Shown here piece after piece: positions 3,189 to 30,246 of a stretch of DNA of 32,565 nt. Origin of the DNA: Promethearchaeota archaeon (GTDB lineage: Archaea; Asgardarchaeota; Lokiarchaeia; Sigyniarchaeales; SOKP01); contig JBHLOI010000036.1 in the NCBI GenBank assembly GCA_048940645.1, positions 1 through 32,565 on the forward strand, given 5' to 3'. The position numbers and the translations under genes were made by a program. Positions within the stretch are counted from its first letter, which is position 1; every line of letters begins with the position of its first letter. Under the pieces are notes generated by a model. That model was given only the letters and a program-made list of their open reading frames with translations, ran no database searches and was not told the DNA's origin.

Positions 3189-3680
3189 TTAACTTGAAAT
3201 AAATTTAACAAGATCTTTTATAATTGAATATTTTTTCTCTTTAAATTTTTCATGTTTAATAGTATCTTCAATTTTTTTAATCTCTTTTGAAAAGTCAATA
3301 ACTGAAAACTCATTTATCTCCTGCTTTTTAGTAGATTCACTTAATTTTTTTAAAAACACACTAATACTTGGCATAAGTTTTGCTAAATTAACATCTAAAT
3401 CCAATTTTGAAATTAAAATTAACTCTTCATTGAAGGTAAATAAATAATTATAATCTTGAGCTTCTAAAGCAAAAGAATTTATTTTTTTTAAATTCAAATC
3501 TTTAGCAATATCTTGAGAATTAGCTATAAGTGATAGAATTTTTTGGGGTATCACTTTTCCTTTAGAAAATTCTTTAATTGCCGTTCCAAGTATTATACCA
3601 TATCGATTTGCTATTGCACATTCTGAATTTAATTCTGTTTTTAATTGTGAGATTATATCATCGTAATCAATTTGTCTCAT
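3189..3680 (-). CDS. Roadblock/LC7 (profilin-like fold) domain protein with C-terminal helical extension
   Basis: An N-terminal helix, then CAIANRYGIILG, a beta-rich middle (FALEAQDYNYLFTF, LILISK) and a closing helix. Lies directly upstream of and co-oriented with the GTPase. Confidence 0.6.
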   Translation of the reverse strand: MRQIDYDDIISQLKTELNSECAIANRYGIILGTAIKEFSKGKVIPQKILSLIANSQDIAKDLNLKKINSFALEAQDYNYLFTFNEELILISKLDLDVNLAKLMPSISVFLKKLSESTKKQEINEFSVIDFSKEIKKIEDTIKHEKFKEKKYSIIKDLVKFISS

Positions 3681-3788: not shown

Positions 3789-4574
3789 GTGAAAATATAT
3801 AAATTTCATTTCATAGAAAAAGAGTCAGATATCACTATTATTTCAGAATCGAAAAATGCTATTTTAAGAGCAAAAAATGAATTTCATCTTCATAGAAGAA
3901 TTCTGGAAAGATATATAATTAAGCATAAAGTATTTCTTACTTCATTTTCACCAGTTAAAGTTCAAACTGATTATGATATAATCAATCTAATGGCTGAAGT
4001 AGCGCTTCTATGTGATGTTGGTCCGATGGCTACTGTGGCAGGAGCTTTTGCAGATTTGATGCTTAAAATAATGAAATCTAAAAATGATGATTTTGATGAT
4101 GCAAAAATCGCATTGATAGAAAATGGCGGAGAAATAGCCAACGATTCTGAACGAACAATGAAAATTGCCCTTTTTGCCGGAAATAATGAATTAAGTCTGA
4201 ATATTGGATTTTTAATTGAAAAGAAAGACTGTCCCATTGGTATTGCGACTAGTTCAGCAACAATAGGACATGCAATTAGCCTTGGCCAAGCAGATGCAGT
4301 AACCATTTTTGCTGAAAATGCTACAATAGCTGATGGTGCTGCAACAAAAATTGGAAATATTGTAAAAGGAGAAGATATTGAGAAATCTATTAAAAGTGGA
4401 TTAGATCTCGTTGACGATTTAGAAGTTATTAGAGGTGTTTTTATTTCTCGTAAAGATAAAATAGGAATGAGCGGATATATTCCTCAAATGATTAAGATAG
4501 AAGGCACAAATGAATTAATACTAAAGAATAAAATTGAATATTACCTTCCAGGTAATTTTGAGATTTTTAAATAA
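3789..4574 (+). CDS. UPF0280 family protein (ApbE-like superfamily)
   Basis: Motifs VGPMATVAG, IENGGEIA, SSATIGHAISLGQADAV, ADGAAT. Confidence 0.85.
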   Translation: MKIYKFHFIEKESDITIISESKNAILRAKNEFHLHRRILERYIIKHKVFLTSFSPVKVQTDYDIINLMAEVALLCDVGPMATVAGAFADLMLKIMKSKNDDFDDAKIALIENGGEIANDSERTMKIALFAGNNELSLNIGFLIEKKDCPIGIATSSATIGHAISLGQADAVTIFAENATIADGAATKIGNIVKGEDIEKSIKSGLDLVDDLEVIRGVFISRKDKIGMSGYIPQMIKIEGTNELILKNKIEYYLPGNFEIFK

Positions 4575-6846
4575 CCCAATAATAAGGAAAGTCTATACCA
4601 TTTTCACTTTTAGAGGAGCAAATCCTATTCATGTAATCCATATTATAATATTCTTCGATTTCTTCTTCAGTTAATCTTTCGAAAACATCAAATCCGGTAA
4701 ATGCCATATAATTATCATCTAATATTAGATAAATATCTGTATTTAGATACTCCTTCATTTGTTGTAACTTATTCGTACCATTTGGGTAGAAATGGTCTTC
4801 TGGTTTAAAATAACCTTTTGGTGCTTGTTTGAAATTAATAAGATCAGATAGTAAAATACTTCTATTATGTTCTTCATAAGGATATTCAAAATACATAACT
4901 ACATAGGGAATTCCAAATTCACAAATTATAAAATTTACATCAGAAGTGTAGCTTGAATACCATTGAAGGGAATATACTTCGCGTCTATGTAGACTATATT
5001 CTTTATCGTCGATATCAAAAAGTTGATTTGAAAATTGGGCAAAAAAATTAAAAATGACTACACTTAAAATAAAAATTTTGATTTTAATCATAGTGATTGA
5101 CTTTAATTTAATTAATTTATATATGTAAGATATAAAACCAAAAATTAAAACGGGGGAGATTAATAATAATATTCTTCCGGACCAAAATTGATGCAGAACA
5201 AACACATCTAGGGAAAAAGCAGTTAAATATATTATTATCATACCTAATAACCATAATAATAATGATTTACCTCTTGCATTTTTTTGGAATAAAATTAACC
5301 CCCATGTTCCGAAAAATATCATAATGAAAAATTCAAATGCAATTAATAATCTTGAAAAATATAAATCAAGAAAATTATAATTGACAATTAAAGCTGAAAT
5401 AAGAAATATTGCACCGAATGATAAAAATATTGGAAATATTAATTTATCTTCTATTTTTTTATAATATCCATATTTCTGGCCCGAAATAACTAATTTAAAT
5501 CTATTTTTTTCAAATTTAATTCCGCTTCGTAATTTTAAAACTATTAGAAATGCAATGATAACCCCTATAACTAAAAAATACCAAGGCAAACCTAAAATAT
5601 CCACAATAACCCAATGAGCACTTATTCCACTAATATTAAATAAAGTGAAAAACGCTCCAAGACAGATACATAAGATTATAAAATCTATTCCTCGCTTATA
5701 ACTTCGAGCAAAATAAATTAGAAAAATGAAGGTAAATGATACCAAATATATTGTTGCTATAAGAGAGTGAGTAAATAAGGCACTAATATAGATTAAAATA
5801 ATAAAAATGTATGTGAAAGTCAAATTTGAGAATATTTCTTTCTTCGTAGGAGGTTCTTCTTTGACAAAATTTTCTAATCTAACATAAAGTAAAAAGAAAA
5901 TGTATAAAGATTGAATAGATGCTAAAGATGTTGGCCAAAATTGATACATTGTATTGCTAAAACCCAAAGAAGTAAATTCTACTAAAAAAACTCCTAAAAT
6001 GGCTAAGTTACGGTTTTTAAAGATTCGCTTCAAAATATTAAAAATTAAAAGCCCTGAAACTAAAAATGTATAAAAAGAGAAATATTGTGCTAAAAGTAAA
6101 TGATCTATTCCGGTAAAAAAATGAATTAATGCTGCAAATAAATGTAAACCTAAAGCACCAAAATATTGATCAACTGGCAAATAATTAAGATTATTTATCA
6201 CTTTAGCCATAAAGATATGATACATAGCATCAGTACCATAAAAATAGCTAAATCTTACACCATTCAGTATTGGCATCAATATTAAAAAGATTACTATTAA
6301 TAATCCAGATAAAGGGATTCTTCTTTTAAAATAATTTAAAATAGAAAAACTCTCGTAAAATGACTGTTTATTAGCATTAAATTCTTCAACTTTTAAGAAA
6401 AGAGAAATTTTAGTCCTCTCTTCATAAATAACGATATATATTAACAATGAAAAATAAATAATTAAGGTTAAAAGAAAGAAGAAATATCCTGTAATAGGAA
6501 TTTCAAAAAAATTTCCGACATAAGCAGATAAGATATAAAGAGTTAAATTTGCAACTATAGTTAAACTCATTTTTTCTAAAAAATTGAAATTCTTATTTCT
6601 AAATATTATAAAAAATAAAGGATAAAAAGGTAAAAATATAACAATAAAAGCTGTGCTAAGTAAACATATTAGTGTAAAGAAAAATTGGCAGATATACATA
6701 TTATTTATCTCAAAAATGACCGATAACCCAATTAGATTTAAAAAAATTACTATGAAAGATAATAGAGATAAAATGAATATGCTAATTTGTTTTCTAATAT
6801 AAATGAATAAAATTATTTTGTTTAAAATAACCTTTAATATACTCAT
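4567..6846 (-). CDS. Polytopic membrane protein, probable GT-C-fold glycosyltransferase
   Basis: Many hydrophobic segments, a GTDAMYH (DxxxH) loop after the first TM bundle, and a soluble C-terminal domain with NRS and NGT sequons. No WWDYG motif. Confidence 0.55.
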   Translation of the reverse strand: MSILKVILNKIILFIYIRKQISIFILSLLSFIVIFLNLIGLSVIFEINNMYICQFFFTLICLLSTAFIVIFLPFYPLFFIIFRNKNFNFLEKMSLTIVANLTLYILSAYVGNFFEIPITGYFFFLLTLIIYFSLLIYIVIYEERTKISLFLKVEEFNANKQSFYESFSILNYFKRRIPLSGLLIVIFLILMPILNGVRFSYFYGTDAMYHIFMAKVINNLNYLPVDQYFGALGLHLFAALIHFFTGIDHLLLAQYFSFYTFLVSGLLIFNILKRIFKNRNLAILGVFLVEFTSLGFSNTMYQFWPTSLASIQSLYIFFLLYVRLENFVKEEPPTKKEIFSNLTFTYIFIILIYISALFTHSLIATIYLVSFTFIFLIYFARSYKRGIDFIILCICLGAFFTLFNISGISAHWVIVDILGLPWYFLVIGVIIAFLIVLKLRSGIKFEKNRFKLVISGQKYGYYKKIEDKLIFPIFLSFGAIFLISALIVNYNFLDLYFSRLLIAFEFFIMIFFGTWGLILFQKNARGKSLLLWLLGMIIIYLTAFSLDVFVLHQFWSGRILLLISPVLIFGFISYIYKLIKLKSITMIKIKIFILSVVIFNFFAQFSNQLFDIDDKEYSLHRREVYSLQWYSSYTSDVNFIICEFGIPYVVMYFEYPYEEHNRSILLSDLINFKQAPKGYFKPEDHFYPNGTNKLQQMKEYLNTDIYLILDDNYMAFTGFDVFERLTEEEIEEYYNMDYMNRICSSKSENGIDFPYYWVI

Positions 6847-18314: not shown

Positions 18315-18971
18315 TTACTTTTCCTTAACACATAAGATTTGAAATGCTTTTGTGGGATGATTTCTTACAAATAATTGAGTTAAGTGAGTAATAACAAACC
18401 AAAAAAATCGAGGTTTAAATTTTAATAAGCCGTATTCACCCCTTAGGAATTTCCATCCATTAATGCCGATAACTTTGAACCCTTTTTTTTTCATTTCTTT
18501 AACAGTCCATCCAGATTTATGCACCTCCCAGGGATTATTATCGTATTCTCCTTGAGGAACAAATCCATTTGTGGTGAAAATAATTAATTTCTTTTTAGCG
18601 ATTTTTTCTAATATCTTTAATAATGAATTTCCTTCTTCTTTTGTTAAATGTTCAATCAAGTCTAATGCAATTACACAATCAAATGAGTTTTCATCAAATT
18701 CTTGATTAATTTTTAAGACATCTAATTGAATATATTTGTCATGAATTTTTTCTTTCTTACTTTTTTTAAGCCATGGTTCGAATTTATCCACTCCTATACA
18801 ATAAAATTGTTTTGGAAAATGTTTAAGTGGGGAATTTGAACCACAGCCTATATCAAGAATTGTTTTACAATTTCGGAGTAAATTTCCCAATTCAGAAATA
18901 TATTCAAATTTTATAGGAAATTTTGAATATACTGTTTTATATAATTGTAGCAACTGATTTTTGATTACCAT
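18315..18971 (-). CDS. Class I SAM-dependent methyltransferase
   Basis: ILDIGCG, GVD, FDENSFDCVIALDLIEHL, HKSGW. Confidence 0.88.
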   Translation of the reverse strand: MVIKNQLLQLYKTVYSKFPIKFEYISELGNLLRNCKTILDIGCGSNSPLKHFPKQFYCIGVDKFEPWLKKSKKEKIHDKYIQLDVLKINQEFDENSFDCVIALDLIEHLTKEEGNSLLKILEKIAKKKLIIFTTNGFVPQGEYDNNPWEVHKSGWTVKEMKKKGFKVIGINGWKFLRGEYGLLKFKPRFFWFVITHLTQLFVRNHPTKAFQILCVKEK

Positions 18972-19020
18972 GGTATTTAGCTTCTTAATTTATTTTTAAA
19001 TCTATATTTATATGATACTT

Positions 19021-20502
19021 CTACTCTTTATCTTTTAACTCTTCAGAAAGCGTTCTATAAATATTTCTAATACTAATTATATTAAGAAAAAACTTAAAAT
19101 CTTCTTTAGAAAAACCCTTAAGAATATAATTGATTATAAAATATAGCAATATATCAAAAATCGCAAATAAGAGATGAATTAAGATAGAAAACTTAAATAG
19201 ACCATTAATCCATATTTGAAATAGCAATATCCCAAACATAATAAAAAAGTTTCGAAATGTACCCCAGTAAAATCTGAGATGGAACTTTTTATATATAATC
19301 GGTCTGTAAATTAATTGAATCAGAATTTTTGAAAATAAAAATGATAGGGCTCCACCATATACGCCTAAATTAAATACAAGAGGAGATATAAATAAAATCA
19401 TAAAACAGATCGAAAGAATATTTTCTATAATGGAAAATTTAGCCAAAAATTTAACCTCTCCCAATGCCTGTAATTGAACTATATTTACACAGTCAAGAGA
19501 AATAGGAATTAAAAGTAATATAAAGATAAATAAAATCTGACCAGTTAAACGGTAATCTTCACCAAATATTAGCACAAAGAAATCTGGTACATAAAGATAA
19601 GTCAAAAAAATAATAGGAAATATTAATAAATTCAATATCTTATGCGTATAATTAACAATTATAATATTTTCACTTTCTTTTCCATCACTTATATTCTTTG
19701 AGAATGTTGTAATTAATATATTTGAAATGCTAATTGTAATGATTAAAAAGTATGAAAAGAATTGTTTGGCGGAAAAGTAATTTGCGACATTACTGATGCT
19801 AGACCAATTATTTAGTAAGAGGACATCAATATTATTAGCTATAAAAATAAGACTATTTGTTATAAAAAAAGGAATACTATATCTAAAAAATTTTCTTAAA
19901 TACTCTTTATTAGGTTTCTTAAATCCTCTATTTTTTGTAAGAAATAAGCTTACTAAAAAATATGAAACGTTAGATATAAGTACTATATAAGTTAATAACC
20001 AAATATCAGATTGGAAAAAGGTTATTAACAAAACTAATAAAATAATTCTTAAAGATATAGCTGTTATTGAAGTTATAGCATTCTTAAAAACTTCCTTTTT
20101 ACTTAAAAATACTTGTTCAAAAAAACTAACCCTAAAGAATAGCATGGCAATAAAAAAAATATACACAACAAAAATTTCTCCGTTATAAATAGGAGCTAGA
20201 GGGATAAAACTTAACAAAACAATTGTATAAATCATAAATTGAATAATTCTGAAAGTTAAAAAGGTCCCATTACATATTGCTTCTTCCTCAGTATCCTTTG
20301 ACTCAGCAAAAAATTTCAAATAAGCTAATTGGATACCTAAATCATTAATAAGACTAAATGTTGTAAAAAACGATAAGATCGCTCCATAGTACCCAACAAC
20401 CTCGATATCGAAAATTATTCTAATTAAGTAAAAGAATATTAAACTTAATGCAATATTGACTATGTTTCCAACAATTAATAAAAAAATTTTCGTAGAATCC
20501 AT
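19021..20502 (-). CDS. Oligosaccharide flippase (MOP/Wzx family)
   Basis: About 14 hydrophobic segments, with VGYYG, DLGIQ, YSIPFF, NIDVLLL, VANY, FGEDY, LGVYGGA. Confidence 0.85.
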   Translation of the reverse strand: MDSTKIFLLIVGNIVNIALSLIFFYLIRIIFDIEVVGYYGAILSFFTTFSLINDLGIQLAYLKFFAESKDTEEEAICNGTFLTFRIIQFMIYTIVLLSFIPLAPIYNGEIFVVYIFFIAMLFFRVSFFEQVFLSKKEVFKNAITSITAISLRIILLVLLITFFQSDIWLLTYIVLISNVSYFLVSLFLTKNRGFKKPNKEYLRKFFRYSIPFFITNSLIFIANNIDVLLLNNWSSISNVANYFSAKQFFSYFLIITISISNILITTFSKNISDGKESENIIIVNYTHKILNLLIFPIIFLTYLYVPDFFVLIFGEDYRLTGQILFIFILLLIPISLDCVNIVQLQALGEVKFLAKFSIIENILSICFMILFISPLVFNLGVYGGALSFLFSKILIQLIYRPIIYKKFHLRFYWGTFRNFFIMFGILLFQIWINGLFKFSILIHLLFAIFDILLYFIINYILKGFSKEDFKFFLNIISIRNIYRTLSEELKDKE

Positions 20503-20573
20503 TAACTTTCAAAAAGAAAAATTTACTATAAATTTTTTTAAATAATTTAGCTATTCTTCAAATTAGATAATTA

Positions 20574-21710
20574 TTATTCTAAATTTACAAGGTATTGCAT
20601 AAGAAATTTTTTATAATCTTTCGGATCCTTGGCAGGTCTCTTTAGGTTAGACCTTGAACCCTGTTTTATTTTGACAATTAAGATAATAGGCCCTTCGGCA
20701 CTTTTTATAAATTTTATAGCCTCCTCTAATTCTTTTAAACTCTTAATTATTAAACCTGATTTATAATTAGAAGAGATAGCGATCTGTAATATATCAATTG
20801 AATTTGAATTTGTAGGTTGACCTCCTGTTGATTCATGAGCATTATTATCAAAAATAATATGCACAAAATTTAATGGGTTATATCGCCCTATTGTGGTAAA
20901 TGCACCCATTTGCATAATAGCCGCTGCATCTCCATCAAAAACAATAATTCTAGTATGTGGCTTTTCAAGTGCTATACTAAGACCAATAGAGCTGGCACAA
21001 CCCATTGAACCGATGTTATAAAAACTCTTAAAGTGATTTTTTTTTCTTGATTCTCTATATTCAAACAATTCTCTGGAAGTATATCCTGTGGTTGAAACAA
21101 CTATTTCATCTTCACCTAAATTATTCATTATTAAATTAATTACCTCTTCTCTGCTGAGAATATGTTCAATATCTTGCTTTACTCTTAAGTCATATTTTTC
21201 AAATAGATTACGCCGTATTATAAAAGCATAGGGACCACAATTTTTATTAAAATATTTTATAGCCTTATTTAGTTCTTCCTTAATTGATTTAATATTCGAT
21301 TCCAAAATACTATAAGGAATTTGAAGTGTGTCTAATAGTGATAGTGTAATTCTTCCCATTTTTTTATGTTGCGGAGCATCTTTTTTCCCAGGCTCTCCTC
21401 GCCATCCAATCATTAAAAGAAGGGGGATAGAATATACGTCAGGATCACATAGAGAAGTTAAGGGGTTTACAGCCTTACCAAGACCAGAATTTTGCATGTA
21501 AACAATACCAATTTTATTAGTGGCTAAATGATATCCTGCTGCTAAAGCAATTGCTTCGCACTCATTACATGCAACGATATGTTTTAAAATACCACCATCA
21601 TTATCTATAATGAATTTGATCCATTCCTTAAATGTTGAATCAGGAATTCCAGTAAAAAATGAAAATCCTTCATCCTTTAAAATATCAAAAAATTCTTGAC
21701 ATAAAATCAT
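20574..21710 (-). CDS. aepY: Phosphonopyruvate decarboxylase (ThDP-dependent)
   Basis: FTGIPDS, YMQNSGLG, IGWRGEPG, PQH, STTGYTSREL, GSMGCASS, DGD...NNAHESTGGQ. Clustered with PEP mutase. Confidence 0.93.
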   Translation of the reverse strand: MILCQEFFDILKDEGFSFFTGIPDSTFKEWIKFIIDNDGGILKHIVACNECEAIALAAGYHLATNKIGIVYMQNSGLGKAVNPLTSLCDPDVYSIPLLLMIGWRGEPGKKDAPQHKKMGRITLSLLDTLQIPYSILESNIKSIKEELNKAIKYFNKNCGPYAFIIRRNLFEKYDLRVKQDIEHILSREEVINLIMNNLGEDEIVVSTTGYTSRELFEYRESRKKNHFKSFYNIGSMGCASSIGLSIALEKPHTRIIVFDGDAAAIMQMGAFTTIGRYNPLNFVHIIFDNNAHESTGGQPTNSNSIDILQIAISSNYKSGLIIKSLKELEEAIKFIKSAEGPIILIVKIKQGSRSNLKRPAKDPKDYKKFLMQYLVNLE

Positions 21711-21738
21711 AACAATCAGCTCAACTTAAATATTGTTT

Positions 21739-22455
21739 TCATATTACTGAAAAATATTTTCTAATTACCTCTAAATCTTCAAAATCGTCAATTTCCATAC
21801 AGTGAATGTCGGTAATATAAATAGGTTTTAAAATTAATTCATTTAATATCTCATTTAAAGCATCTTCAGCATAGCAATATACCTTATTCTGCTTTATAAA
21901 TTTTTCAATTTGATTAAGCCAAGTTTTAAAAAACTGTTTTGAAAGTTTGTATAAAGGTGCTAAAAATGCGCTTTTAGGATCAAAAATTTCAACTCCTATT
22001 TTAGTTATTCTCTCATCAATTATTAGAGCTTTAAAATCTTTTTTAGGGATTTCAATTTCTTTATTCACAAGCACACAATTTTTTTCTTCAGAATTAAGTA
22101 TTTGTTCTAAGCTTAAAATTGAAAATATTAAGTCTCCATGTAATAGAATTACATCATCATTAATAAAATCTTTAAGTAAATGAATAGAATATATATAGTT
22201 TGTTTTCTCATATATTGGATTATGTATATATTGTACGTTCAAGGTTGGATAATTCTCACTGATATGACTTTTTATCTTCTCTTCAAAAGGGCCAGTTAGC
22301 ATAACTAAATCTATTAAATTGCACAAAATTAGATTTTTTAATTGAAGATCTAAAATAGTTTCATCATTAGTAATCTTAATGAGACATTTAGGATTATTTT
22401 CCGTTAAATATCCTAATCTTTTTCCAACTCCAGCATTTAAAATGACTGCTTTCAT
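21739..22455 (-). CDS. Phosphonate/phosphocholine cytidylyltransferase (PntC/LicC-like NTP transferase)
   Basis: ILNAGVGKRLGYLTENNPKCL, NPIYEKTNYIYS, LLHGDL, MEIDDFEDL. Overlaps the upstream reductase gene by ATGA. Confidence 0.85.
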   Translation of the reverse strand: MKAVILNAGVGKRLGYLTENNPKCLIKITNDETILDLQLKNLILCNLIDLVMLTGPFEEKIKSHISENYPTLNVQYIHNPIYEKTNYIYSIHLLKDFINDDVILLHGDLIFSILSLEQILNSEEKNCVLVNKEIEIPKKDFKALIIDERITKIGVEIFDPKSAFLAPLYKLSKQFFKTWLNQIEKFIKQNKVYCYAEDALNEILNELILKPIYITDIHCMEIDDFEDLEVIRKYFSVI

Positions 22456-23588
22456 TTAATCTCCTCTAAAATCTTTCTGAGTTGAACTTCGGTCAATAAT
22501 CGCGGATTATTTTTTACCCGATTTGGAGTAAATCCATTTCTAACTATGAGGTCAATATCCTCTGACGAATTTATCCCTAAATCGCTTAATTTAGTTTCTA
22601 AATTTATGTGTTTCATAATATATATGATTCTTTCTTTAGCATCTCGGAAATCGGAGGCACCAATAATAGATAGTAATCTATTCATTATATCTCTAACAAA
22701 ATTCACGCCCCTAGGGTCTAAAACATCATCATGATCAACCTCTGAATTAAAAACAATCATAGAAGGTAAAGTTAAAGCAACAGCATGTCCATGGGGGACA
22801 TTAAAATATGATGTGATAGGGTATGAAATAGCGTGGCAAGCAGTTGTTTTTGTTATATTTATTGCTTTCCCAGCATAATTGGCAGCAATTGCCATATTAT
22901 ACAATGATTTTTTGTTTTGATTAATACTTGCTCCAAAAATATTCTTCATAATTAACTTAATTGCTTTTTTAGCATACTTTCTGGATTCTTCTGTAGAATT
23001 TACATTCCAAAATGACTCAATTGCTTGTGTTAATGCATCCATAGACGAATATGTAATAATTTTTTTAGGTAGAGTTAACATGAAATGAGGATCGATGATT
23101 ACATAATTGGGCTGCATGAACTCTGGACTTGCTAAGGAATATTTTGTTTTCCCAATATAAACAACAGCAAAATGAGTTGCTTCACTACCAGAACCTACTG
23201 TAGTTGGAATACGAATTAAAGGAAACCCTTTTCTAATAATCCTAGCATCTCCTTTGATTAGATCTTCTGGATTGCCGTTATTTGTTGATAATATTGAAAT
23301 AGATTTACCCATATCAATGACAGAACCCCCTCCAACAGCAACTATTACATCATATTTATCCCTTTTAAAAATTTCTAATCCTTTTTTTATATCCTTAAGT
23401 TTTGGATTGGGAGTAAAATCATTGAAATGATAAAATTTGAAATTGGCAATTATTTTTAAAATAGAATTTTTTATTTCATCCTTTTCGAAGGATTTCTTTC
23501 CTGTTATTAAAAATATATTACTAAAATTATTCTGACGTAGTATCTTTCTCAAGTTTCTAATAGAATTAAATCCTCGATATTCAATCAT
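22452..23588 (-). CDS. Phosphonoacetaldehyde reductase (iron-dependent ADH family, PhpC/FomC-like)
   Basis: GGGSVIDMGK, IPTTVGSGSEAT, DALTQAIES, TTACHAISYP, PHGHAV. Lies between pepM and ppd. Confidence 0.88.
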   Translation of the reverse strand: MIEYRGFNSIRNLRKILRQNNFSNIFLITGKKSFEKDEIKNSILKIIANFKFYHFNDFTPNPKLKDIKKGLEIFKRDKYDVIVAVGGGSVIDMGKSISILSTNNGNPEDLIKGDARIIRKGFPLIRIPTTVGSGSEATHFAVVYIGKTKYSLASPEFMQPNYVIIDPHFMLTLPKKIITYSSMDALTQAIESFWNVNSTEESRKYAKKAIKLIMKNIFGASINQNKKSLYNMAIAANYAGKAINITKTTACHAISYPITSYFNVPHGHAVALTLPSMIVFNSEVDHDDVLDPRGVNFVRDIMNRLLSIIGASDFRDAKERIIYIMKHINLETKLSDLGINSSEDIDLIVRNGFTPNRVKNNPRLLTEVQLRKILEEIK

Positions 23589-23654
23589 TTTTTAGGAGCA
23601 ATTTCAATTCAAAATTAAATATGTTTAAATATTTTTTCCATATCTCTTAAAAAG

Positions 23655-25337
23655 TTATAACCATTTCTCCGCAAATTCTACATCTTTTTTATTATGAATT
23701 TCAAACCAGCCTTTATATACTTCTAATAAATGTACTTTAAAACCTCTGTCAATCATTTCTTGAATAAAGTCAGTAAATGAAGCTTTTTCAAAAGAATCTG
23801 CCTCATGGAACGGTCCTCTATGATTTGTTAAACAATCATAATAGATTTTTCGAATAATATTTACACCATATTCTGAAAAATAAGCGATTCCAATATACTC
23901 GTAATCAGCCATATTTTTATCAATATATTTCCCGATTCTTATAATTTCATTATCTTTTCGGTATAACATCCTCTGTTCTTTTGTTGGTTTATTTTTTGTC
24001 AAAACTAAATCAAGCTTTTTATCAATTTCATGTTTATGATATGCATATGAATTATCTACAACCAAAACGATATCATGTTTTACATTTAATAAATTGTTAA
24101 TTATTTGCTCGTTGAATAGTATATCTGAATTTAAGTAAATAAAGCCATTAATCATATCCTCCTTTGCTTTAAATAAAGAATATAAAATATAGGTATCATC
24201 ATAATCATCATTAATTATATATTTAACTCCCTCAATGTTAACTAACTCTTTTTTATACCCTTTAACGACAGTTACATCTTTAATTCCACAATTTTTTAAC
24301 AGATCAATTTGTCTCTGGAGTATAGGTTTGCCCTTGATATCTATTATTGATTTTGGAATGTCAAAAATCGGATCTTTACCAGCAGCTGGAATAATTACTC
24401 GAATCTTACCTTTTGTGTACTTTAAATCTTTTTCCCTTACTTCTAAAAATCCAACATCTTCGAAAATCGTTCTAACTGGGCTGCATAATGATTCTGCTTC
24501 AAAGGCTCTCCTATTCTTTAAAATGTTTAAAGCAGTCTCTTTCATAATCTTGTGAGCAGATCGTAATAAATGATTTGCATATATTACAATATTAAATCCA
24601 TGGTTTCTTAGTTCATCTTCAGTTACTATGTTATAAGTCGTTGGTACGCATATTAGTGGTTTCTTCAAATCCATTTCATAATATTTCTTTGCAAAATTAA
24701 AAATATCACTTGGACTATCATCTTTAGAATGAATCATTATCGCATCTGCTCCAGCATTTAAATATTTTTTTGCCCTAAATATTGCATCCTCTAATCCTGA
24801 ACCAGAAATGAAACTTTCAATTCTGGCTGCGATCATGAAGTCTGGTGAGAGTTGGATATTTTTACCTCTTTCAATTTTTATGGCGAATATATCAGGATCC
24901 TCTTGAGTCTGGTTTGAAGCAGGATCTAAACTATTTCTTTTAGGAAAAGTTTTATCCTCAATAATTACCATGGAAACGCCCATATCTTCTAAATGTCTAA
25001 CAAAATACTCAAAATTAGTAGCATCTCCCCCAGTATCACCATCAACAATTAATGGTTTTGTAGAACTGTTCAGGATTTGCCTTATTGTTTCATATCTCGA
25101 TTCAGGTCCAATTACATTAGCATCGGGATATCCTTTAGCAGCGCTTTCAGTTAAACTACTTTCCCAAATCGCATCGAATTCATAAATCTCATCTTCTTCG
25201 TTTATCTTAATATTATTAGCTATAATTGCACTTAAACCATTATGAGCTTCAATAACTCTGACAAAATTTTTTTCGTGAAGTATTTTTTTTAAGGTTCCTC
25301 TTCTCTTTTCTGGTGCAATCCTGTTAAGTAAGGCCAT
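23655..25337 (-). CDS. pepM: Phosphoenolpyruvate mutase fused to C-terminal NTP-transferase domain
   Basis: Diagnostic EDKxxxxxNS motif (EDKTFPKRNS), plus EAHNGLS, DGDTGG, ARIES, VPTTY, IYANHLLR. C-terminal IIPAAG...PK...NSDILF...WFEIH. Confidence 0.95.
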   Translation of the reverse strand: MALLNRIAPEKRRGTLKKILHEKNFVRVIEAHNGLSAIIANNIKINEEDEIYEFDAIWESSLTESAAKGYPDANVIGPESRYETIRQILNSSTKPLIVDGDTGGDATNFEYFVRHLEDMGVSMVIIEDKTFPKRNSLDPASNQTQEDPDIFAIKIERGKNIQLSPDFMIAARIESFISGSGLEDAIFRAKKYLNAGADAIMIHSKDDSPSDIFNFAKKYYEMDLKKPLICVPTTYNIVTEDELRNHGFNIVIYANHLLRSAHKIMKETALNILKNRRAFEAESLCSPVRTIFEDVGFLEVREKDLKYTKGKIRVIIPAAGKDPIFDIPKSIIDIKGKPILQRQIDLLKNCGIKDVTVVKGYKKELVNIEGVKYIINDDYDDTYILYSLFKAKEDMINGFIYLNSDILFNEQIINNLLNVKHDIVLVVDNSYAYHKHEIDKKLDLVLTKNKPTKEQRMLYRKDNEIIRIGKYIDKNMADYEYIGIAYFSEYGVNIIRKIYYDCLTNHRGPFHEADSFEKASFTDFIQEMIDRGFKVHLLEVYKGWFEIHNKKDVEFAEKWL

Positions 25338-25434
25338 TTTTTTATAAAAGTTCTGTATTCTATTTTATTAATAAAAATGTAAAGAATATAAAATATATTA
25401 GTGGACAATTTAATTGTGAGTAAAAAGATTATTA

Positions 25435-26655
25435 TCAATATTCTATTTCAAGGAAATCTAAAATTCTTCTGATTGAATTTCCATCTGTATATCTATTAAA
25501 TCTATCTCTAACTTGTTTTCTTTTTTGCTCAAACTCTTTTGTTATATTCTCAATATTTTTAATTGCATTTGTTAAATCTTTAAAATTATATAAAAGTGGT
25601 CCTGGAGCTATATCTTCCAGTTTATAATACATTCCTCTAATTTTTTTATATCTCTCAAGGTCATAAGGAAAAAGTAATATTGGTCTATTTAATAATGAGA
25701 AATCAAGCATCGTTGATGAATAATCAGTAATGAGGATATCTGTAATTATATATAATTCTTGAATATCTGCTGATTTAGGTACGAGTTTAAGATTTTCATA
25801 CTCTTTAAAATTAACATCTTGAACGAAATAATGCCCTTTTAGGAGGAATAGAGTTTTCATATCTTTAAGCATTTTATTTAATTCATGCAATTCTTTCTTT
25901 GAAATCGAAAACTTTAAACTGTGATCTTCTCTAAATGTGGGACAATACAGAATTATTTGATTTACACTTTCAGGGATTTGATATTTGGTTTTTAAATTTT
26001 CGATAAAATTTTCATCCTCATTAAATAATATATCATTTCTCGGGTAACCTAAAGCTAATATTTTCTCTTTTGGCACTTTAAAGGCAGAACTTAATATATT
26101 ATGCTCTAAGTCATCTCTAGTAGGAGTTAGGATATAATTAAGATAATCATTATATTTTAATTTTAATTTAAAATATCTACCCCACTTTTTATATACAAGA
26201 AATTCAAGATCCTCATCAAAAATAATTTTCTTTATAGGTGTACCATGCCAAGTTAGAATTGTTGTCGATCTCGGTGAAAATTCAATTGGTAGTACATCAT
26301 AAATACCATGTGTGATGAAAATAAATCTTGCTTTTCGTAGTAATTTTATTGCCATAATATTTAATGTGTGGATAGCATTATATCCCTTTAATCTAAGTTC
26401 TTTAACTAATTTCCGTGATTTTGCGACCCATACAACCTTATAATCTGAATGTTGATTTAAATATTCAAATAGATATTTGGTATTATCATGATATAGATTT
26501 CCTCCATACCCCCCCATAATAATTAATTTCTCATCAACTTTATTACTAAAAAGTTTGGATAAAAGTTTAAAGCCAAATGGTATAATAATATCTCTCAAAA
26601 ACTTATAATATTTATTATTTCTCAAAAAGGAGTATTTCTCAAGTTGCAAAACCAT
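25435..26655 (-). CDS. CDP-glycerol glycerophosphotransferase (TagB/TagF) family protein
   Basis: WHGTPIKK, GYPRND, YCPTFR, KGHY, ITDYSS. Confidence 0.9.
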   Translation of the reverse strand: MVLQLEKYSFLRNNKYYKFLRDIIIPFGFKLLSKLFSNKVDEKLIIMGGYGGNLYHDNTKYLFEYLNQHSDYKVVWVAKSRKLVKELRLKGYNAIHTLNIMAIKLLRKARFIFITHGIYDVLPIEFSPRSTTILTWHGTPIKKIIFDEDLEFLVYKKWGRYFKLKLKYNDYLNYILTPTRDDLEHNILSSAFKVPKEKILALGYPRNDILFNEDENFIENLKTKYQIPESVNQIILYCPTFREDHSLKFSISKKELHELNKMLKDMKTLFLLKGHYFVQDVNFKEYENLKLVPKSADIQELYIITDILITDYSSTMLDFSLLNRPILLFPYDLERYKKIRGMYYKLEDIAPGPLLYNFKDLTNAIKNIENITKEFEQKRKQVRDRFNRYTDGNSIRRILDFLEIEY

Positions 26656-26806: not shown

Positions 26807-27370
26807 TCACACATTATTAGTTAACCGTTCGTTTGGTAGATAACCCATATCATTTAAAGCTTTTAATACAATTTGTTTACTTTCTTCTACTGTTTGTTTA
26901 TCAGTTTCAACAATTATATCTGCTTGATCTGGTTCTTCAAATGGGTGGTCTATTCCTGTGAAATCTTTAATTTCTCCTGCTCTTGCTTTAGCATACATAC
27001 CTTTTATATCTCTTTCTTCACACACTTCGAGTAAACACTTAACATAAACGAGTATATAATCACCAATTTCATTTCTTGAATATGCCCGAATCTTATTATA
27101 TGGTGATACAAAAGAGGCAAGGACAGCAACACCATTTCGGGTTAAAAGCTTAGCAACAAACGTGACTCTCTCAATATTCATATTTCGATCCTCTTCAGTG
27201 AATCCCAAATCACGTGTTAAACTCTTTCTAACAATATCTCCATCTAAACGTTCAACTTTCATTCCTCTTTTTTTCAAATCGTCAGCAACAGCATCTGCAA
27301 GTACAGATTTCCCTGAGCAAGGAAGCCCTGTAAACCATAACGTAAATCCTTTATGTTCTATTTTTTTCAC
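26807..27370 (-). CDS. cysC: Adenylyl-sulfate (APS) kinase
   Basis: WFTGLPCSGKS, LDGDIVR, DLGFTEEDR, RDIKGMYAKA, FTGIDHPFEEP. Confidence 0.96.
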   Translation of the reverse strand: MKKIEHKGFTLWFTGLPCSGKSVLADAVADDLKKRGMKVERLDGDIVRKSLTRDLGFTEEDRNMNIERVTFVAKLLTRNGVAVLASFVSPYNKIRAYSRNEIGDYILVYVKCLLEVCEERDIKGMYAKARAGEIKDFTGIDHPFEEPDQADIIVETDKQTVEESKQIVLKALNDMGYLPNERLTNNV

Positions 27371-27375
27371 CTTTT

Positions 27376-28764
27376 TTAAAATTCTATTACATTTCCTTCC
27401 ATATCTTTTGGAATATCAAATCCTAAAATATTTAGGCAAGTTGGAGCAATGTCTAATATGTTCTTGGTGCCTAAATCCTTTCCAATTTTACTTCCTGGAT
27501 TATAAATAATATATATTCCGTAATAATCATGTACAGCATCATCTGGTCCCGTATCATTTTCTTTTAAATACATAGATTCATAACCTACTGTACCAGCAGA
27601 CCTCCAATTTAAATCATCAAAATATACCATTAAATCAGGTGGATCTCCCCGAATTATTGCATAAAAATCTTCAGGTTTATAGACTTTTGTATTCATAGTT
27701 TTACCAGAGTCATCCTTTATTGATTTTATCTTTTCTGCTATAACTTCCCTCATTTTTTCATAGTCTTCCTTTTTAATGATACCCTGAGGTTCTCTTCCTT
27801 CAACGTTTAAAAAAATCCTAGCATAATAACCACCCCAACCCCAAGCATATGTTCTGTTCCAATCTATTATTGCATCATCTAATCTAGTTCTTGGTTCGGG
27901 TTTCTCTTTAAATTTTAGTAATCCAAGTTCTTCAAAAGCCATATTAACGCATATTAAACCTTTCATTGCTTTTGCTCCATGATCGGATGCTACAATAACA
28001 GTTGTATTATCATCCAACAAATCCAAAATTTCCCCTACTTCTTCATCTAAATATTTATAATATTTACGCATTTCAAGCTCGAATTTATTTCCAGGAACGT
28101 ATTTGTTATGTTTTTTATCAAAATATTTCCAAAAAGCGTGATGAAATCTATCTAAACCTATTATAACAAATTGGAAAAAGTCCCAATCTTTATTTTTCAT
28201 CAAATATTTGATTGTTTTAAATTGAATCTTAGTCATTTCATATATTTGCTTTAACAAGGCTTTTTTATTTTCTACTCTAAAATTTGCATCTAAAATGTAA
28301 TTGCCAACTTTCTCTTCTATTTCTTGTTTCAGTTCAGGGGGATATGTATAATTTGAGTCTGTATCTGGTGCTATAAAGCCAGCAATCAAGTTACCATTAA
28401 TCAATTTGACTGGATATGTGGGAGGTACTCCAATAATAATGCTTTTTAACCCGTTTCTGCCAATTATATCCCAAATGGTAGGTTCTTTTACTGAATTTGA
28501 AGTGGCTATCCAAAAATCATTATAAGCAAATTTCTTTCGATGTCTAAATCCATAAATCCCAAGAGTACCAGCTTTTTTACCTGTTGCCATAACCATCCAT
28601 GCTGGTATTGTAATTGGAGGATCAGAACTTCTTAATTTTCCATATACTCCATTTTCCATTAATTTTCTAATATTTGGGCAATCATCGATGAAGTCATTAA
28701 ATAAAGTTCTTGGTGTAGCACAATCTAAACCAATAAGGACCAATTTCTTTTTTTTTTTACTCAT
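27376..28764 (-). CDS. Alkaline-phosphatase-superfamily (NPP/COG3379-like) metalloenzyme with Thr nucleophile
   Basis: IGLDCAT, SSDPPITIPAW, LDRFHHAFW, ASDHG, DAVH, ILDIAPT. No CxPxR sulfatase motif. Confidence 0.88.
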   Translation of the reverse strand: MSKKKKKLVLIGLDCATPRTLFNDFIDDCPNIRKLMENGVYGKLRSSDPPITIPAWMVMATGKKAGTLGIYGFRHRKKFAYNDFWIATSNSVKEPTIWDIIGRNGLKSIIIGVPPTYPVKLINGNLIAGFIAPDTDSNYTYPPELKQEIEEKVGNYILDANFRVENKKALLKQIYEMTKIQFKTIKYLMKNKDWDFFQFVIIGLDRFHHAFWKYFDKKHNKYVPGNKFELEMRKYYKYLDEEVGEILDLLDDNTTVIVASDHGAKAMKGLICVNMAFEELGLLKFKEKPEPRTRLDDAIIDWNRTYAWGWGGYYARIFLNVEGREPQGIIKKEDYEKMREVIAEKIKSIKDDSGKTMNTKVYKPEDFYAIIRGDPPDLMVYFDDLNWRSAGTVGYESMYLKENDTGPDDAVHDYYGIYIIYNPGSKIGKDLGTKNILDIAPTCLNILGFDIPKDMEGNVIEF

Positions 28765-28809
28765 AATGATACCAACACAAGGCTCTTATTTTTATAATTT
28801 ACATAAAAA

Positions 28810-29958
28810 TCATGTAACAAATGGATTTTTATACTTTAGAATCACTTCTGCTACTTCCTTACGCATAACTTCTGGATCAGGTGGTTTTCCGGCCTTTAAA
28901 GCATCTCTAATCTCACGACCTGCAAAGAAATTCTGCATTTCTGGAGGATGGGGACAAATCTTATCATTCACAACCGCATCACACTTTTTACATTTTGAGA
29001 AGGAGCGAAATTTAATTGGTTCAATACCTAAATCTGGAAATTTATCAAAAATGAAATGAGCATCATAAGGGCCATAGTAATCACCTACTCCCGCATGATC
29101 TCTTCCAATAATTATATGTGTACATCCAAAATTCTTTCTTGCAATTGCATGAAATATTGCTTCTTTTGGCCCTGCATATCTCATCTCTGTTTCGAATGTA
29201 CTCATTACTACACGATTTTTAGGATAATATTCTTTAATTAATACTTTATATGCTTCGATAATTACATCATCTAAGAAATCACCTTGTTTTTTCTTACCGA
29301 TTACAGGATTTATGAACAAACCATCTACATAAGTTAAACCTGCTTTTTGGACATATTCATGTCCCAAATGTGGGGGGTTTCTTGTTTGAAATGCCACAAC
29401 TCGTTCCCATCTCATTTCTTTGAAAAGAACTCTAGTTTCTATAGGTTTCAGGTCTATTTCTGGAAATGTAGCTCTAGGTTCATTGATTAAAAATATTTGC
29501 CCTCCCATTAGTTTTTCTTTATAGTTTAAGACCCTGTTCACTCCTGGATGATCTCTTTCTAAAGTTCCATATGTTTTGCTAGCATAATTTTTTTTGTCAT
29601 AATCATAGATATCTTCTACTCTCATTAGTGCAATAGGCTTATTCTCACTATTTGTTAAGACGATCTGATCATCGCTTTTGATATTCTTGAGTTCACTTTC
29701 TGAAACATCTAAAGTTATAGGAAAAGGCCAAGGAATATCACTTTCCAAATACATTGACTCAAGAACATAATTAAAATCATTTTCATTCATAAAGCCTTCT
29801 AATGGACTAAATACTCCAAAAGCAATGTTTTTAATCACTTTTAATGTTTCAGGTCTTACTTTAATTGTTTCAAATTCGCTAATTTGACTTAAAATTCTTT
29901 CTTTTTCAAAATTAGGTAAAACTTTATTTATTAAAGTACCTCCATGTGGCGAAATCAT
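28810..29958 (-). CDS. sat: Sulfate adenylyltransferase (Sat-type ATP sulfurylase)
   Basis: PHGGTL, FSPLEGFM, QTRNPPHLGHE, MRYAGPKEA, GRDHAGVG, and Zn site CKKC...CPH. Confidence 0.97.
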   Translation of the reverse strand: MISPHGGTLINKVLPNFEKERILSQISEFETIKVRPETLKVIKNIAFGVFSPLEGFMNENDFNYVLESMYLESDIPWPFPITLDVSESELKNIKSDDQIVLTNSENKPIALMRVEDIYDYDKKNYASKTYGTLERDHPGVNRVLNYKEKLMGGQIFLINEPRATFPEIDLKPIETRVLFKEMRWERVVAFQTRNPPHLGHEYVQKAGLTYVDGLFINPVIGKKKQGDFLDDVIIEAYKVLIKEYYPKNRVVMSTFETEMRYAGPKEAIFHAIARKNFGCTHIIIGRDHAGVGDYYGPYDAHFIFDKFPDLGIEPIKFRSFSKCKKCDAVVNDKICPHPPEMQNFFAGREIRDALKAGKPPDPEVMRKEVAEVILKYKNPFVT

Positions 29959-30006: not shown

Positions 30007-30246
30007 TTAATCAATATATCCCAAATCTCGTAATCTCTGCTTTACCTTCTCTTCTTCTTCCTTTGTAAAGGCTTGTTTTGATCTCTCCTCTTCCTCTATA
30101 GAGGAAAGAACTTGCCTAAGAACATACGTTACATAACTAGAGACCGAAGAAAACCCAGTTCCTTTCATTCGCTCTTTTATTTTCTCTGAAAGAACTTTAG
30201 GAATTGATACAGTTGTATATTCAACTTTATGATCATCATCTGACAT
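30007..30246 (-). CDS. Ribbon-helix-helix (CopG/MetJ-like) protein with C-terminal EEKVKQRLRDLGY tail
   Basis: YTTVSIP beta-ribbon, a helix, then GFSSVSSYVTYVLR as helix 2. First gene of the sat run. Confidence 0.85.
   Translation of the reverse strand: MSDDDHKVEYTTVSIPKVLSEKIKERMKGTGFSSVSSYVTYVLRQVLSSIEEEERSKQAFTKEEEEKVKQRLRDLGYID

Follow-up and report, generated by a model that had tools for sequence, protein, structure and literature searches.

The question raised by this locus is which protein uses the activated sulfate made by an operon in which no sulfotransferase is evident. The locus is a minus-strand unit of four genes on contig JBHLOI010000036.1 of a Promethearchaeota archaeon (assembly GCA_048940645.1); the whole stretch analyzed, 32,565 nt in length, is called the window below, and the source genome, which is 89.6% complete, is called G000. 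Between the genes for ATP sulfurylase (sat) and adenosine 5'-phosphosulfate (APS) kinase (cysC), the unit contains a gene for a 462-aa protein of the alkaline-phosphatase (AP) fold that resembles nucleotide pyrophosphatases/phosphodiesterases (NPPs). We refer to this protein as the AP enzyme, and to the 79-aa protein encoded 5' of sat as the RHH (ribbon-helix-helix) protein. Sat and CysC together make 3'-phosphoadenosine 5'-phosphosulfate (PAPS), as is established for both families. Our analysis, in which all evidence is computational, suggests from comparative genomics that the AP enzyme is probably the PAPS consumer of the cassette, a PAPS-dependent sulfotransferase built on the alkaline-phosphatase fold. 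The four genes are as follows.

30007..30246, minus strand: 79-aa small protein with a C-terminal tail (RHH-tail), an open reading frame (ORF) 48 nt 5' of sat; no Pfam match
28810..29958, minus strand: sat, ATP sulfurylase (sulfate adenylyltransferase); PF01747, E 3.6e-84; PUA_2, E 7.9e-48; NF003166, 489 bits
27376..28764, minus strand: 462-aa NPP-like enzyme, the proposed PAPS-dependent sulfotransferase; PF01663 (Phosphodiest), E 2.3e-48
26807..27370, minus strand: cysC, APS kinase; PF01583, E 1.1e-58; TIGR00455, 225 bits; C-terminal end ...KALNDMGYLPNERLTNNV

The genes are separated by 48, 45 and 5 nt. Pfam searches covered every larger ORF of the window, and the products of sat, cysC and the gene between them were scanned against both Pfam and NCBIfam. 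An earlier, sequence-only reading had placed an AP-fold gene between sat and cysC in a glycan locus, with gaps of 45 and 5 nt, and had seen no PAPS/APS reductase, sulfite reductase or canonical P-loop sulfotransferase in the window. The ORFs confirmed the arrangement, and the Pfam scan found no sulfotransferase, PAPS/APS reductase or sulfite reductase among the larger ORFs. The RHH-tail gene, the fourth member of the unit, had escaped that reading. The G+C content of the window is approximately 28%, and its closest protein matches carry names such as Promethearchaeota, Hodarchaeales and Thorarchaeota.

The cassette itself is already published; what is new here is the proposed role of its central NPP gene. 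A five-gene cluster of copG, ATP sulfurylase, DHH-type phosphatase of 3'-phosphoadenosine 5'-phosphate (PAP; pApase), type I phosphodiesterase/NPP and APS kinase genes is described for Pyrococcus yayanosii (PYCH_17520-17560), as well as for Ferroglobus, Aciduliprofundum, Aeropyrum and Ignicoccus (PMC8268124). According to the same paper, the pApase of the cluster was characterized, the NPP gene product was "speculated" to degrade pyrophosphate (PPi), and the authors identified no sulfotransferase or sulfite-reducing core enzyme in P. yayanosii. The corresponding cluster of Thermococcus onnurineus is TON_1704-1707, in which TON_1705, the orthologue of the AP enzyme, is listed as a pyrophosphatase (PMC4463584). 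The window matches the archaeal copG-sat-(DHH)-NPP-cysC cluster in gene content and order, except that the DHH gene is missing; this gene is present in the closed Asgard genome G038, in which the order is RHH-sat-DHH-AP-cysC. A Thermococcus sp. locus contains RHH, sat, an AP gene whose product is 55% identical to that of the window, and cysC. The RHH-tail gene, sat, the AP gene and cysC would therefore seem to be one unit, a copy of the Thermococcales-type archaeal "sulfate assimilation" cluster. It differs from the clusters of P. yayanosii and T. onnurineus, to which no sulfotransferase has been assigned, in lacking the DHH pApase gene, and in the role proposed for the NPP gene product, which the available text of the two papers calls only a pyrophosphatase. 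Neither paper, in the text available, mentions that the copG protein has a tail.

To place the gene in a broader context, we collected 80 orthologue loci (48-74% identity) from many bacterial and archaeal phyla by a search from a 12-sequence alignment. Within 1.5 kb of the enzyme gene, sat was found at 54 loci, cysC at 58, either gene at 67 and both at 45; the linkage of homologues to sat and cysC, to which the sequence-only reading had looked, is thus widespread. The small upstream RHH protein was encoded at 46 of these loci, the usual order being RHH-sat-AP-cysC. Natural fusions also join the AP enzyme to its neighbors (Sat-AP, CysC-AP-tail and AP-pyruvate kinase-Sat), and further fusions join it to a family 2 glycosyltransferase (GT2), a methyltransferase or a PPi-releasing nucleotidyltransferase. 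The pyruvate kinase barrel, an ATP-regenerating domain, occurs in the fusions P0164 and P0228, which read AP-pyruvate kinase-Sat (1151 aa) and AP-pyruvate kinase-tail (786 aa).

With 8350 cluster representatives at E 1e-10 or better, the family is a large one, and it is unusually well conserved. Identity is 70-94% within Asgard lineages and 48-57% to orthologues from Bathyarchaeia, Thermococcus, Archaeoglobaceae, Hadarchaeota, Nitrososphaerota, Aminicenantes, Clostridia, Chloroflexota, Poribacteria and others. Literature searches on COG3379, or on Asgard archaea together with sat, cysC or sulfotransferase, returned nothing on the family. In four Asgard genomes of family f17 (G021, G032, G051 and G100), we observed an AP-like gene (35-38% identical) together with an RHH-tail-like gene; APS kinase was not found in these four, in which the system may have diverged and may use a different donor.

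The strongest argument that the AP enzyme does the job of a sulfotransferase comes from cassettes in which it is replaced by one. In the Asgard genome G041, the order is RHH-sat-DHH-[195-aa P-loop sulfotransferase]-cysC, and the 195-aa protein contains the signature GIERSGTS and scores above the cut-offs of both PF00685 and PF13469. The cassette accordingly exists in two versions that differ by one gene, encoding either the NPP-fold enzyme or a P-loop sulfotransferase. The small sulfotransferase (P0274 family; PF00685/PF13469) occupies the same slot in the RHH-tail/sat/pApase/cysC cassette and has the same tail partner as the AP enzyme, although its fold, with a PAPS-binding P-loop, is unrelated, and it is itself uncharacterized. 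Our Asgard sample comprised 151 genomes, 48 with an AP orthologue and 103 without; the small sulfotransferase was encoded in nine, none of which was among the 48. In a second survey, covering 80 metagenome loci of the small sulfotransferase, the adjoining genes included cysC at 45 loci, PAP phosphatase at 38, RHH at 36 and the tail at 45; an AP orthologue adjoined it at none, the only relatives there being paralogues with 25-30% identity. Two-gene modules consisting of RHH-tail and the small sulfotransferase also occurred without sat or cysC nearby, and in G086 a sulfatase-like gene lacking the formylglycine motif, the small sulfotransferase gene and the RHH-tail gene stand in a row.

A second line of evidence concerns the product of PAPS-dependent transfer. 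At 8 of the 80 enzyme loci, a 316-aa DHH/DHHA1 gene lies between the genes for the small protein and the AP enzyme, and its product matches the solved PAP phosphatase 8A8K of M. thermolithotrophicus (E 4.8e-83). An operon that encodes its own PAP phosphatase expects PAP, which implies that PAPS is used as a donor. With the same query, no DHH PAP phosphatase homologue was found in G000, which proves nothing given the 89.6% completeness of that genome. In two nearly or fully complete Asgard genomes with the cassette, G147 (100% complete, 10 contigs) and G049 (99%), there was no match to PF13469, PF00685 or PAPS reductase; both carry seven or eight PF00884 "sulfatases". PF13469 sulfotransferases were found in approximately 22 of the 25 Asgard genomes that have cysC without an AP orthologue, compared with 20 of the 48 that have the orthologue. 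No PAPS reductase scored above the cut-off in G000.

The AP enzyme has the alkaline-phosphatase core fold of PF01663/NPP, according to both Pfam and Foldseek. It scored 24.3 bits against PF00884 (Sulfatase), below the 25-bit cut-off, and had no match to the P-loop sulfotransferase families PF00685 and PF13469, its fold being NPP-like instead and unrelated to the DHH-DHHA1 and inositol-monophosphatase folds of PAP phosphatases. A single-sequence search of the PDB gave no match; NPPs were reached only by profile and fold searches. The AF2 model (pLDDT 96.4) had as its nearest solved folds ENPP1, ENPP3 and the Xanthomonas NPP, with TM scores of 0.57-0.70, E values of 1e-16 to 1e-18 and 12-17% identity. 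In a profile alignment, Thr52 within the motif PPITIPAW aligned with the nucleophile Thr90 of the Xanthomonas enzyme; among 60 homologues, this position was Thr in 52 and Ser in five, and the metal ligands D14, D205, H209, D261, H262 and H412 were at least 90% conserved. There is no formylglycine motif (C/SxPxR), the nucleophile site reading PPITIPAW, and the N-terminus, MSKKKKKLVLIGLD, enters strand 1 directly, so that there is no signal peptide. The alignments, motif check and model thus agree with the sequence-only reading on the Thr nucleophile, the metal ligands and the lack of both a formylglycine motif and a signal peptide.

The fold, two-metal ligands and position of the Thr nucleophile motif are therefore shared with the Xanthomonas NPP (2GSN/7MW8), ENPP1 and ENPP3. 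However, the AP enzyme is only 12-17% identical to these proteins, is cytoplasmic, has an extra insertion of approximately 100 residues and has Phe73 at the position of Asn111 of the NPPs, with Arg74 beside it, in a region where the alignment is weak (13 bits). Arg74 is kept in 78% of the 60 homologues and is invariant in the 12 closest. The paralogues in G000 retain the metal site and differ from the AP enzyme at R74, F162, R163, Y313, R316, R388, N403, D404 and D408. A second glycan locus of G000 (L017, C1:14000-33999) encodes a radical SAM/SPASM protein and a pair of PF01663 paralogues, along with a canonical sulfotransferase of 301 aa and a sulfatase-like protein of 487 aa. The nucleophile site of the sulfatase-like protein reads PATPSS, without C/SxPxR; two other sulfatases of G000 (C11, C105) do have CxPxR.

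If the AP enzyme is a sulfotransferase, its immediate acceptor may be its small partner protein. In the 79-aa protein, an N-terminal strand-helix-helix part (named copG in the literature on these clusters) is followed by the C-terminal tail ...FTKEEEEKVKQRLRDLGYID; the protein ends in ...EEEEKVKQRLRDLGYID, and Tyr77 is the proposed acceptor. In 28 RHH orthologues from both domains, L72, L75, G76 and Y77 were invariant and R71 was at least 90% conserved, giving the tail pattern ...ERLRxLGY, in which an acidic helix precedes RLRxLGY. Tyrosine in an acidic context is also the sulfate acceptor of the protein tyrosine sulfotransferases TPST and RaxST. The tail was present in 46 of the 48 Asgard genomes with an AP orthologue, the gene lying at a contig edge in both exceptions, and at 63 of the 80 AP loci. 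Some lineages, Chloroflexota among them, lack the small protein and have the same tail appended to CysC; the tail also forms the C-terminus of the enzyme itself at one locus (L073) and in 16 of approximately 150 family representatives, including CysC-AP-tail and AP-pyruvate kinase-tail fusions, and in Chthoniobacterales it is carried by a neighboring PF01663 paralogue of 548-571 aa. A scan of G000 found the full tail only on the RHH protein and a short LGY ending only on CysC; none of the sulfatase-like paralogues of G000 had the tail in cis.

We also predicted the complex of the AP enzyme with the RHH protein, which scored 0.77, the best control scoring 0.00. Of 80 solved complexes, 58 attain the mark set for such scores, as do 2 of 110 mismatched pairs; because the alignments used here were self-made, the counts apply only roughly. 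At least 84% of contacts were shared between runs, and the partner had a pLDDT of at least 74. In the predicted complex, tail residues 57-79 sit in the catalytic cleft, where Tyr77 would contact Thr52, I51, I53, G72, F73, G312 and Y313, and the predicted binding site is bordered by several other conserved residues, Arg as well as aromatic. The conservation of the enzyme interface was 0.63, compared with 0.52 for random position sets, 0.3% of which reached this value. The prediction supports, but does not show, that the tail tyrosine is the acceptor or an active-site ligand of the enzyme.

From the complex prediction, the co-occurrence and the fusions taken together, the invariant tail tyrosine, Tyr77 in this protein, would be the immediate acceptor of the sulfate. 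In terms of geometry, Thr52 at the two-metal site could accept the sulfuryl group of PAPS, forming sulfo-Thr, before handing it to Tyr77, or could aid a direct transfer. We give the joint reading, in which the AP enzyme is the sulfotransferase of the cassette and the tail tyrosine its acceptor, slightly less than an even chance. The sequence-only reading had proposed that the enzyme moves sulfate onto sugars. Its first half is strengthened by the linkage, the replacement by a P-loop enzyme and the genomes without canonical sulfotransferases; as regards the immediate acceptor, the conservation and distribution of the tail and the predicted complex make the tyrosine of the RHH protein likelier than a sugar.

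It is also possible, although we consider it doubtful, that the sulfated tail is a carrier in a protein-borne relay that feeds AP-superfamily paralogues, as gene neighborhoods suggest. The loader would be either the NPP-fold enzyme, through sulfo-Thr, or the small P-loop sulfotransferase, and the tail would be portable, carried in some cases by the small RHH protein and in others by CysC or by the enzymes. The weakest step is the last, in which the sulfo-tyrosine tail would act as an aryl-sulfate donor for PF00884 and PF01663 paralogues that lack formylglycine and that would, judging from gene neighborhoods only, sulfate glycans. A two-step sulfation is known from caprazamycin biosynthesis, in which the sulfate of PAPS is first transferred to a phenolic carrier, a small polyketide, and then onward by a PAPS-independent transferase, the two enzymes having P-loop and aryl-sulfate sulfotransferase (ASST) folds. 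In contrast, the carrier proposed here would be a protein tail, and both steps would take place on AP-superfamily folds.

The nearest known parallel in archaeal glycan loci is provided by Agl30 (VNG1056C) and Agl31 (VNG1057C) of Halobacterium salinarum, AP-superfamily proteins that were shown genetically to be N-glycan sulfotransferases (PMC11980604). As is proposed for the AP enzyme, they stand in place of P-loop enzymes; however, they belong to the sulfatase-like PF00884 branch rather than PF01663 and have no described tail or carrier. Haloferax volcanii also sulfates its N-glycan and has Agl7 (PMC3892788); the family of Agl7 (HVO_2046) was not found in the papers searched. The H. volcanii control genome had no match to the APS kinase family PF01583, although this species sulfates its N-glycan and accepts Agl30/31, so that the sulfatase-like archaeal sulfotransferases may use a donor other than PAPS.

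Several points weigh against the proposal that the AP enzyme sulfates the tail. We know of no precedent for sulfuryl transfer through a Thr nucleophile in the NPP fold. The complex prediction is a model's own confidence, not a measurement, and since the same tail accompanies two unrelated loader folds, its conservation may be imposed by another common partner. The identity of approximately 50% between Bacteria and Archaea is compatible with a universal substrate, for which a small nucleotide or PPi would be an equally good candidate. G000 encodes three canonical sulfotransferases on other contigs (C37, C34 and C1) that could use PAPS. The sequence-only reading had named a canonical sulfotransferase just outside the window, if it explained PAPS use, as a finding that would count against its proposal, and G000 partly matches that case. 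The complementary distribution of the two cassette versions rests on few independent lineages (five Asgard genera), so that the statistics are weak, and it is positional equivalence that carries the argument from replacement. In three Asgard genomes, all of genus g3, the order is RHH-sat-cysC, without a central gene. Moreover, the family I pyrophosphatase PF00719 was absent from G000 and from all 12 sampled genomes of its genus, and the published guess for the enzyme is a pyrophosphatase (PMC4463584 and PMC8268124).

The loci L104 and L105, of the Asgard genomes G030 and G019, likewise read RHH-sat-cysC without a central gene; in these genomes, the gene for the small P-loop sulfotransferase lies at another place. 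In G030, a sulfatase-like gene lies approximately 2 kb from these genes.

Among the alternatives, the one that survives best is that the enzyme uses PAPS to sulfate its final acceptor directly, be it a sugar, a nucleotide sugar or a lipid-linked glycan, and that the tail only docks or regulates; we consider this unlikely. The linkage and displacement evidence fits it equally well, and the genomic setting is favorable: the enzyme occurs in glycan loci, adjoins GT2 and GT4 genes when away from sat and cysC, and is fused to GT2, methyltransferase and nucleotidyltransferase domains, and at the 80 loci cysC is followed by a short-chain dehydrogenase/reductase (SDR) epimerase/dehydratase gene in 22 cases and a UDP-glucose dehydrogenase gene in eight. 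NPP folds can also bind nucleotide sugars, as in NPP3 with UDP-GlcNAc (PDB 6F30), which was among the fold matches. However, a cross-domain identity of approximately 50% would be unusual for an enzyme acting on lineage-specific glycans, the tail accompanies the enzyme through fusions and across phyla, and the tail tyrosine, if located inside the catalytic site as predicted, would block a sugar acceptor.

A regulatory role of the tail appears improbable. Here, the RHH protein would be the operon repressor and its tail a pseudo-substrate plug, or a PAPS sensor acting through Tyr sulfation, with no onward transfer. The RHH/copG-like fold and the first position in the operon are typical of autoregulators (PMC8268124), genus g3 has retained the RHH protein despite missing the AP gene, and the two-gene modules with the small sulfotransferase lack sat and cysC nearby. 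However, the same tail is found on CysC, on the AP enzyme and on PF01663 paralogues without a DNA-binding part, and genomes in which the enzyme is the sole candidate PAPS consumer would be making PAPS merely to modify a regulator.

Only marginally less probable is the published role, in which the enzyme degrades PPi and so pulls the unfavorable ATP sulfurylase reaction forward. AP-superfamily enzymes can hydrolyze PPi, and the fusion partners Sat and nucleotidyltransferase both release it. TON_1705 and PYCH_17550 have been annotated as, or speculated to be, pyrophosphatases (PMC4463584 and PMC8268124), and the lack of PF00719 in G000 and its 12 sampled congeners is in line with this role. Across the Asgard sample, however, PF00719 was found in 11 of the 48 genomes with an AP orthologue, including the 100% complete G147, and in 53 of the 103 without one, and several genomes with cysC and no AP orthologue also had no PF00719; because of these cases, there is no clean complementarity between the two. 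As deciding evidence, such complementarity was set aside, the trend being only loosely negative and confounded by relatedness. The gene that replaces the enzyme in the alternative cassette encodes a sulfotransferase, and that version has no pyrophosphatase equivalent, which speaks against a pyrophosphatase role. Orthologues are also found between GT2 and GHMP kinase genes without sat or cysC, and the role leaves the tail and its predicted docking on Thr52 unexplained. The PPi hydrolysis that the sequence-only reading had listed as an alternative is accordingly weakened and retains a small share of probability.

It is highly improbable that the enzyme is a nucleotide hydrolase, acting either as a PAP 3'-phosphatase or as an APS/PAPS pyrophosphatase that controls pool size. 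Its closest folds are nucleotide pyrophosphatases, and G000 has no detectable DHH PAP phosphatase homologue. However, in many cassettes an 8A8K-type PAP phosphatase is encoded by a separate gene beside the enzyme, which argues that the enzyme is not itself the PAP phosphatase and disfavors the PAP hydrolysis suggested earlier; G000 has two Inositol_P (CysQ-family) genes, the Asn111 position of the NPPs is not kept, and the destruction of APS or PAPS inside their own synthesis operon would be futile.

Transfer of a phosphonate, which the sequence-only reading had also suggested, or of a phospho-alcohol, in the manner of LtaS, EptA or PigN, would suit the phosphonate module directly 3' of the cassette and a family (PF01663) that includes glycosylphosphatidylinositol (GPI) phosphoethanolamine transferases, but is scarcely credible, because the module is not conserved with the enzyme or the cassette and a TagF-like transferase is already there for that step; it was rejected, since the linkage to sat, cysC and the tail persists at loci where no phosphonate genes were seen.

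The co-directional genes 3' of cysC (18315..26655, minus strand) form this phosphonate-decorated glycan module, with the following products, assigned by Pfam.

25435-26655, minus strand: TagF-like glycerophosphotransferase
23655-25337, minus strand: phosphoenolpyruvate (PEP) mutase-nucleotidyltransferase fusion
22452-23588, minus strand: Fe-alcohol dehydrogenase
21739-22455, minus strand: nucleotidyltransferase
20574-21710, minus strand: thiamine pyrophosphate (TPP) decarboxylase (phosphonopyruvate-type)
19021-20502, minus strand: Wzx-type flippase
18315-18971, minus strand: methyltransferase

The phosphonate genes from 20574 to 26655 on the minus strand are a complete set, which suggests that this Asgard archaeon has a glycan with nucleotide-activated hydroxyethyl- or aminoethyl-phosphonate. 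In other genomes, the phosphonate-glycan module is not kept beside the sulfate cassette, the flanks of which vary. At four other Asgard loci (L006, L007, L009 and L010), the genes after the cassette form a conserved divergent block that by appearance encodes a heptose-type sugar pathway, with transketolase halves, a PfkB kinase, a transaldolase, a haloacid dehalogenase (HAD) phosphatase, a ribulose-phosphate epimerase, a SIS isomerase and a GHMP kinase.

The remainder of the window encodes glycosyltransferases and sugar-nucleotide enzymes. A 655-aa protein encoded at 1147-3114 on the minus strand contains an Arf/Roc/Ras-type small GTPase domain (PF00025, E 3e-21), a eukaryote-like GTPase typical of Asgard archaea. 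Three ORFs had no Pfam match: 4567-6846 on the minus strand (759 aa), 3189-3680 on the minus strand (163 aa) and 3789-4574 on the plus strand (261 aa).

If the AP enzyme is indeed the sulfotransferase of the cassette, the missing PAPS consumer would be named for an operon first published no later than 2015, for which Thermococcales have neither a known sulfotransferase nor a known functional reductive pathway. The label "pyrophosphatase" or "alkaline phosphatase family" would be corrected on thousands of proteins, and sulfuryl transfer would be added to the chemistry of the NPP fold. Sulfation of the tail would further indicate cytoplasmic tyrosine sulfation in prokaryotes, and would provide a hint at the sulfate donor of archaeal sulfotransferases of the Agl30/31 type. 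The relay, if true, would represent a carrier-protein logic for sulfation, like that of acyl carrier protein (ACP) or LysW, across many archaeal and bacterial phyla. For Asgard archaea and many uncultured anaerobes, these findings would offer a testable route to sulfated surface glycans.

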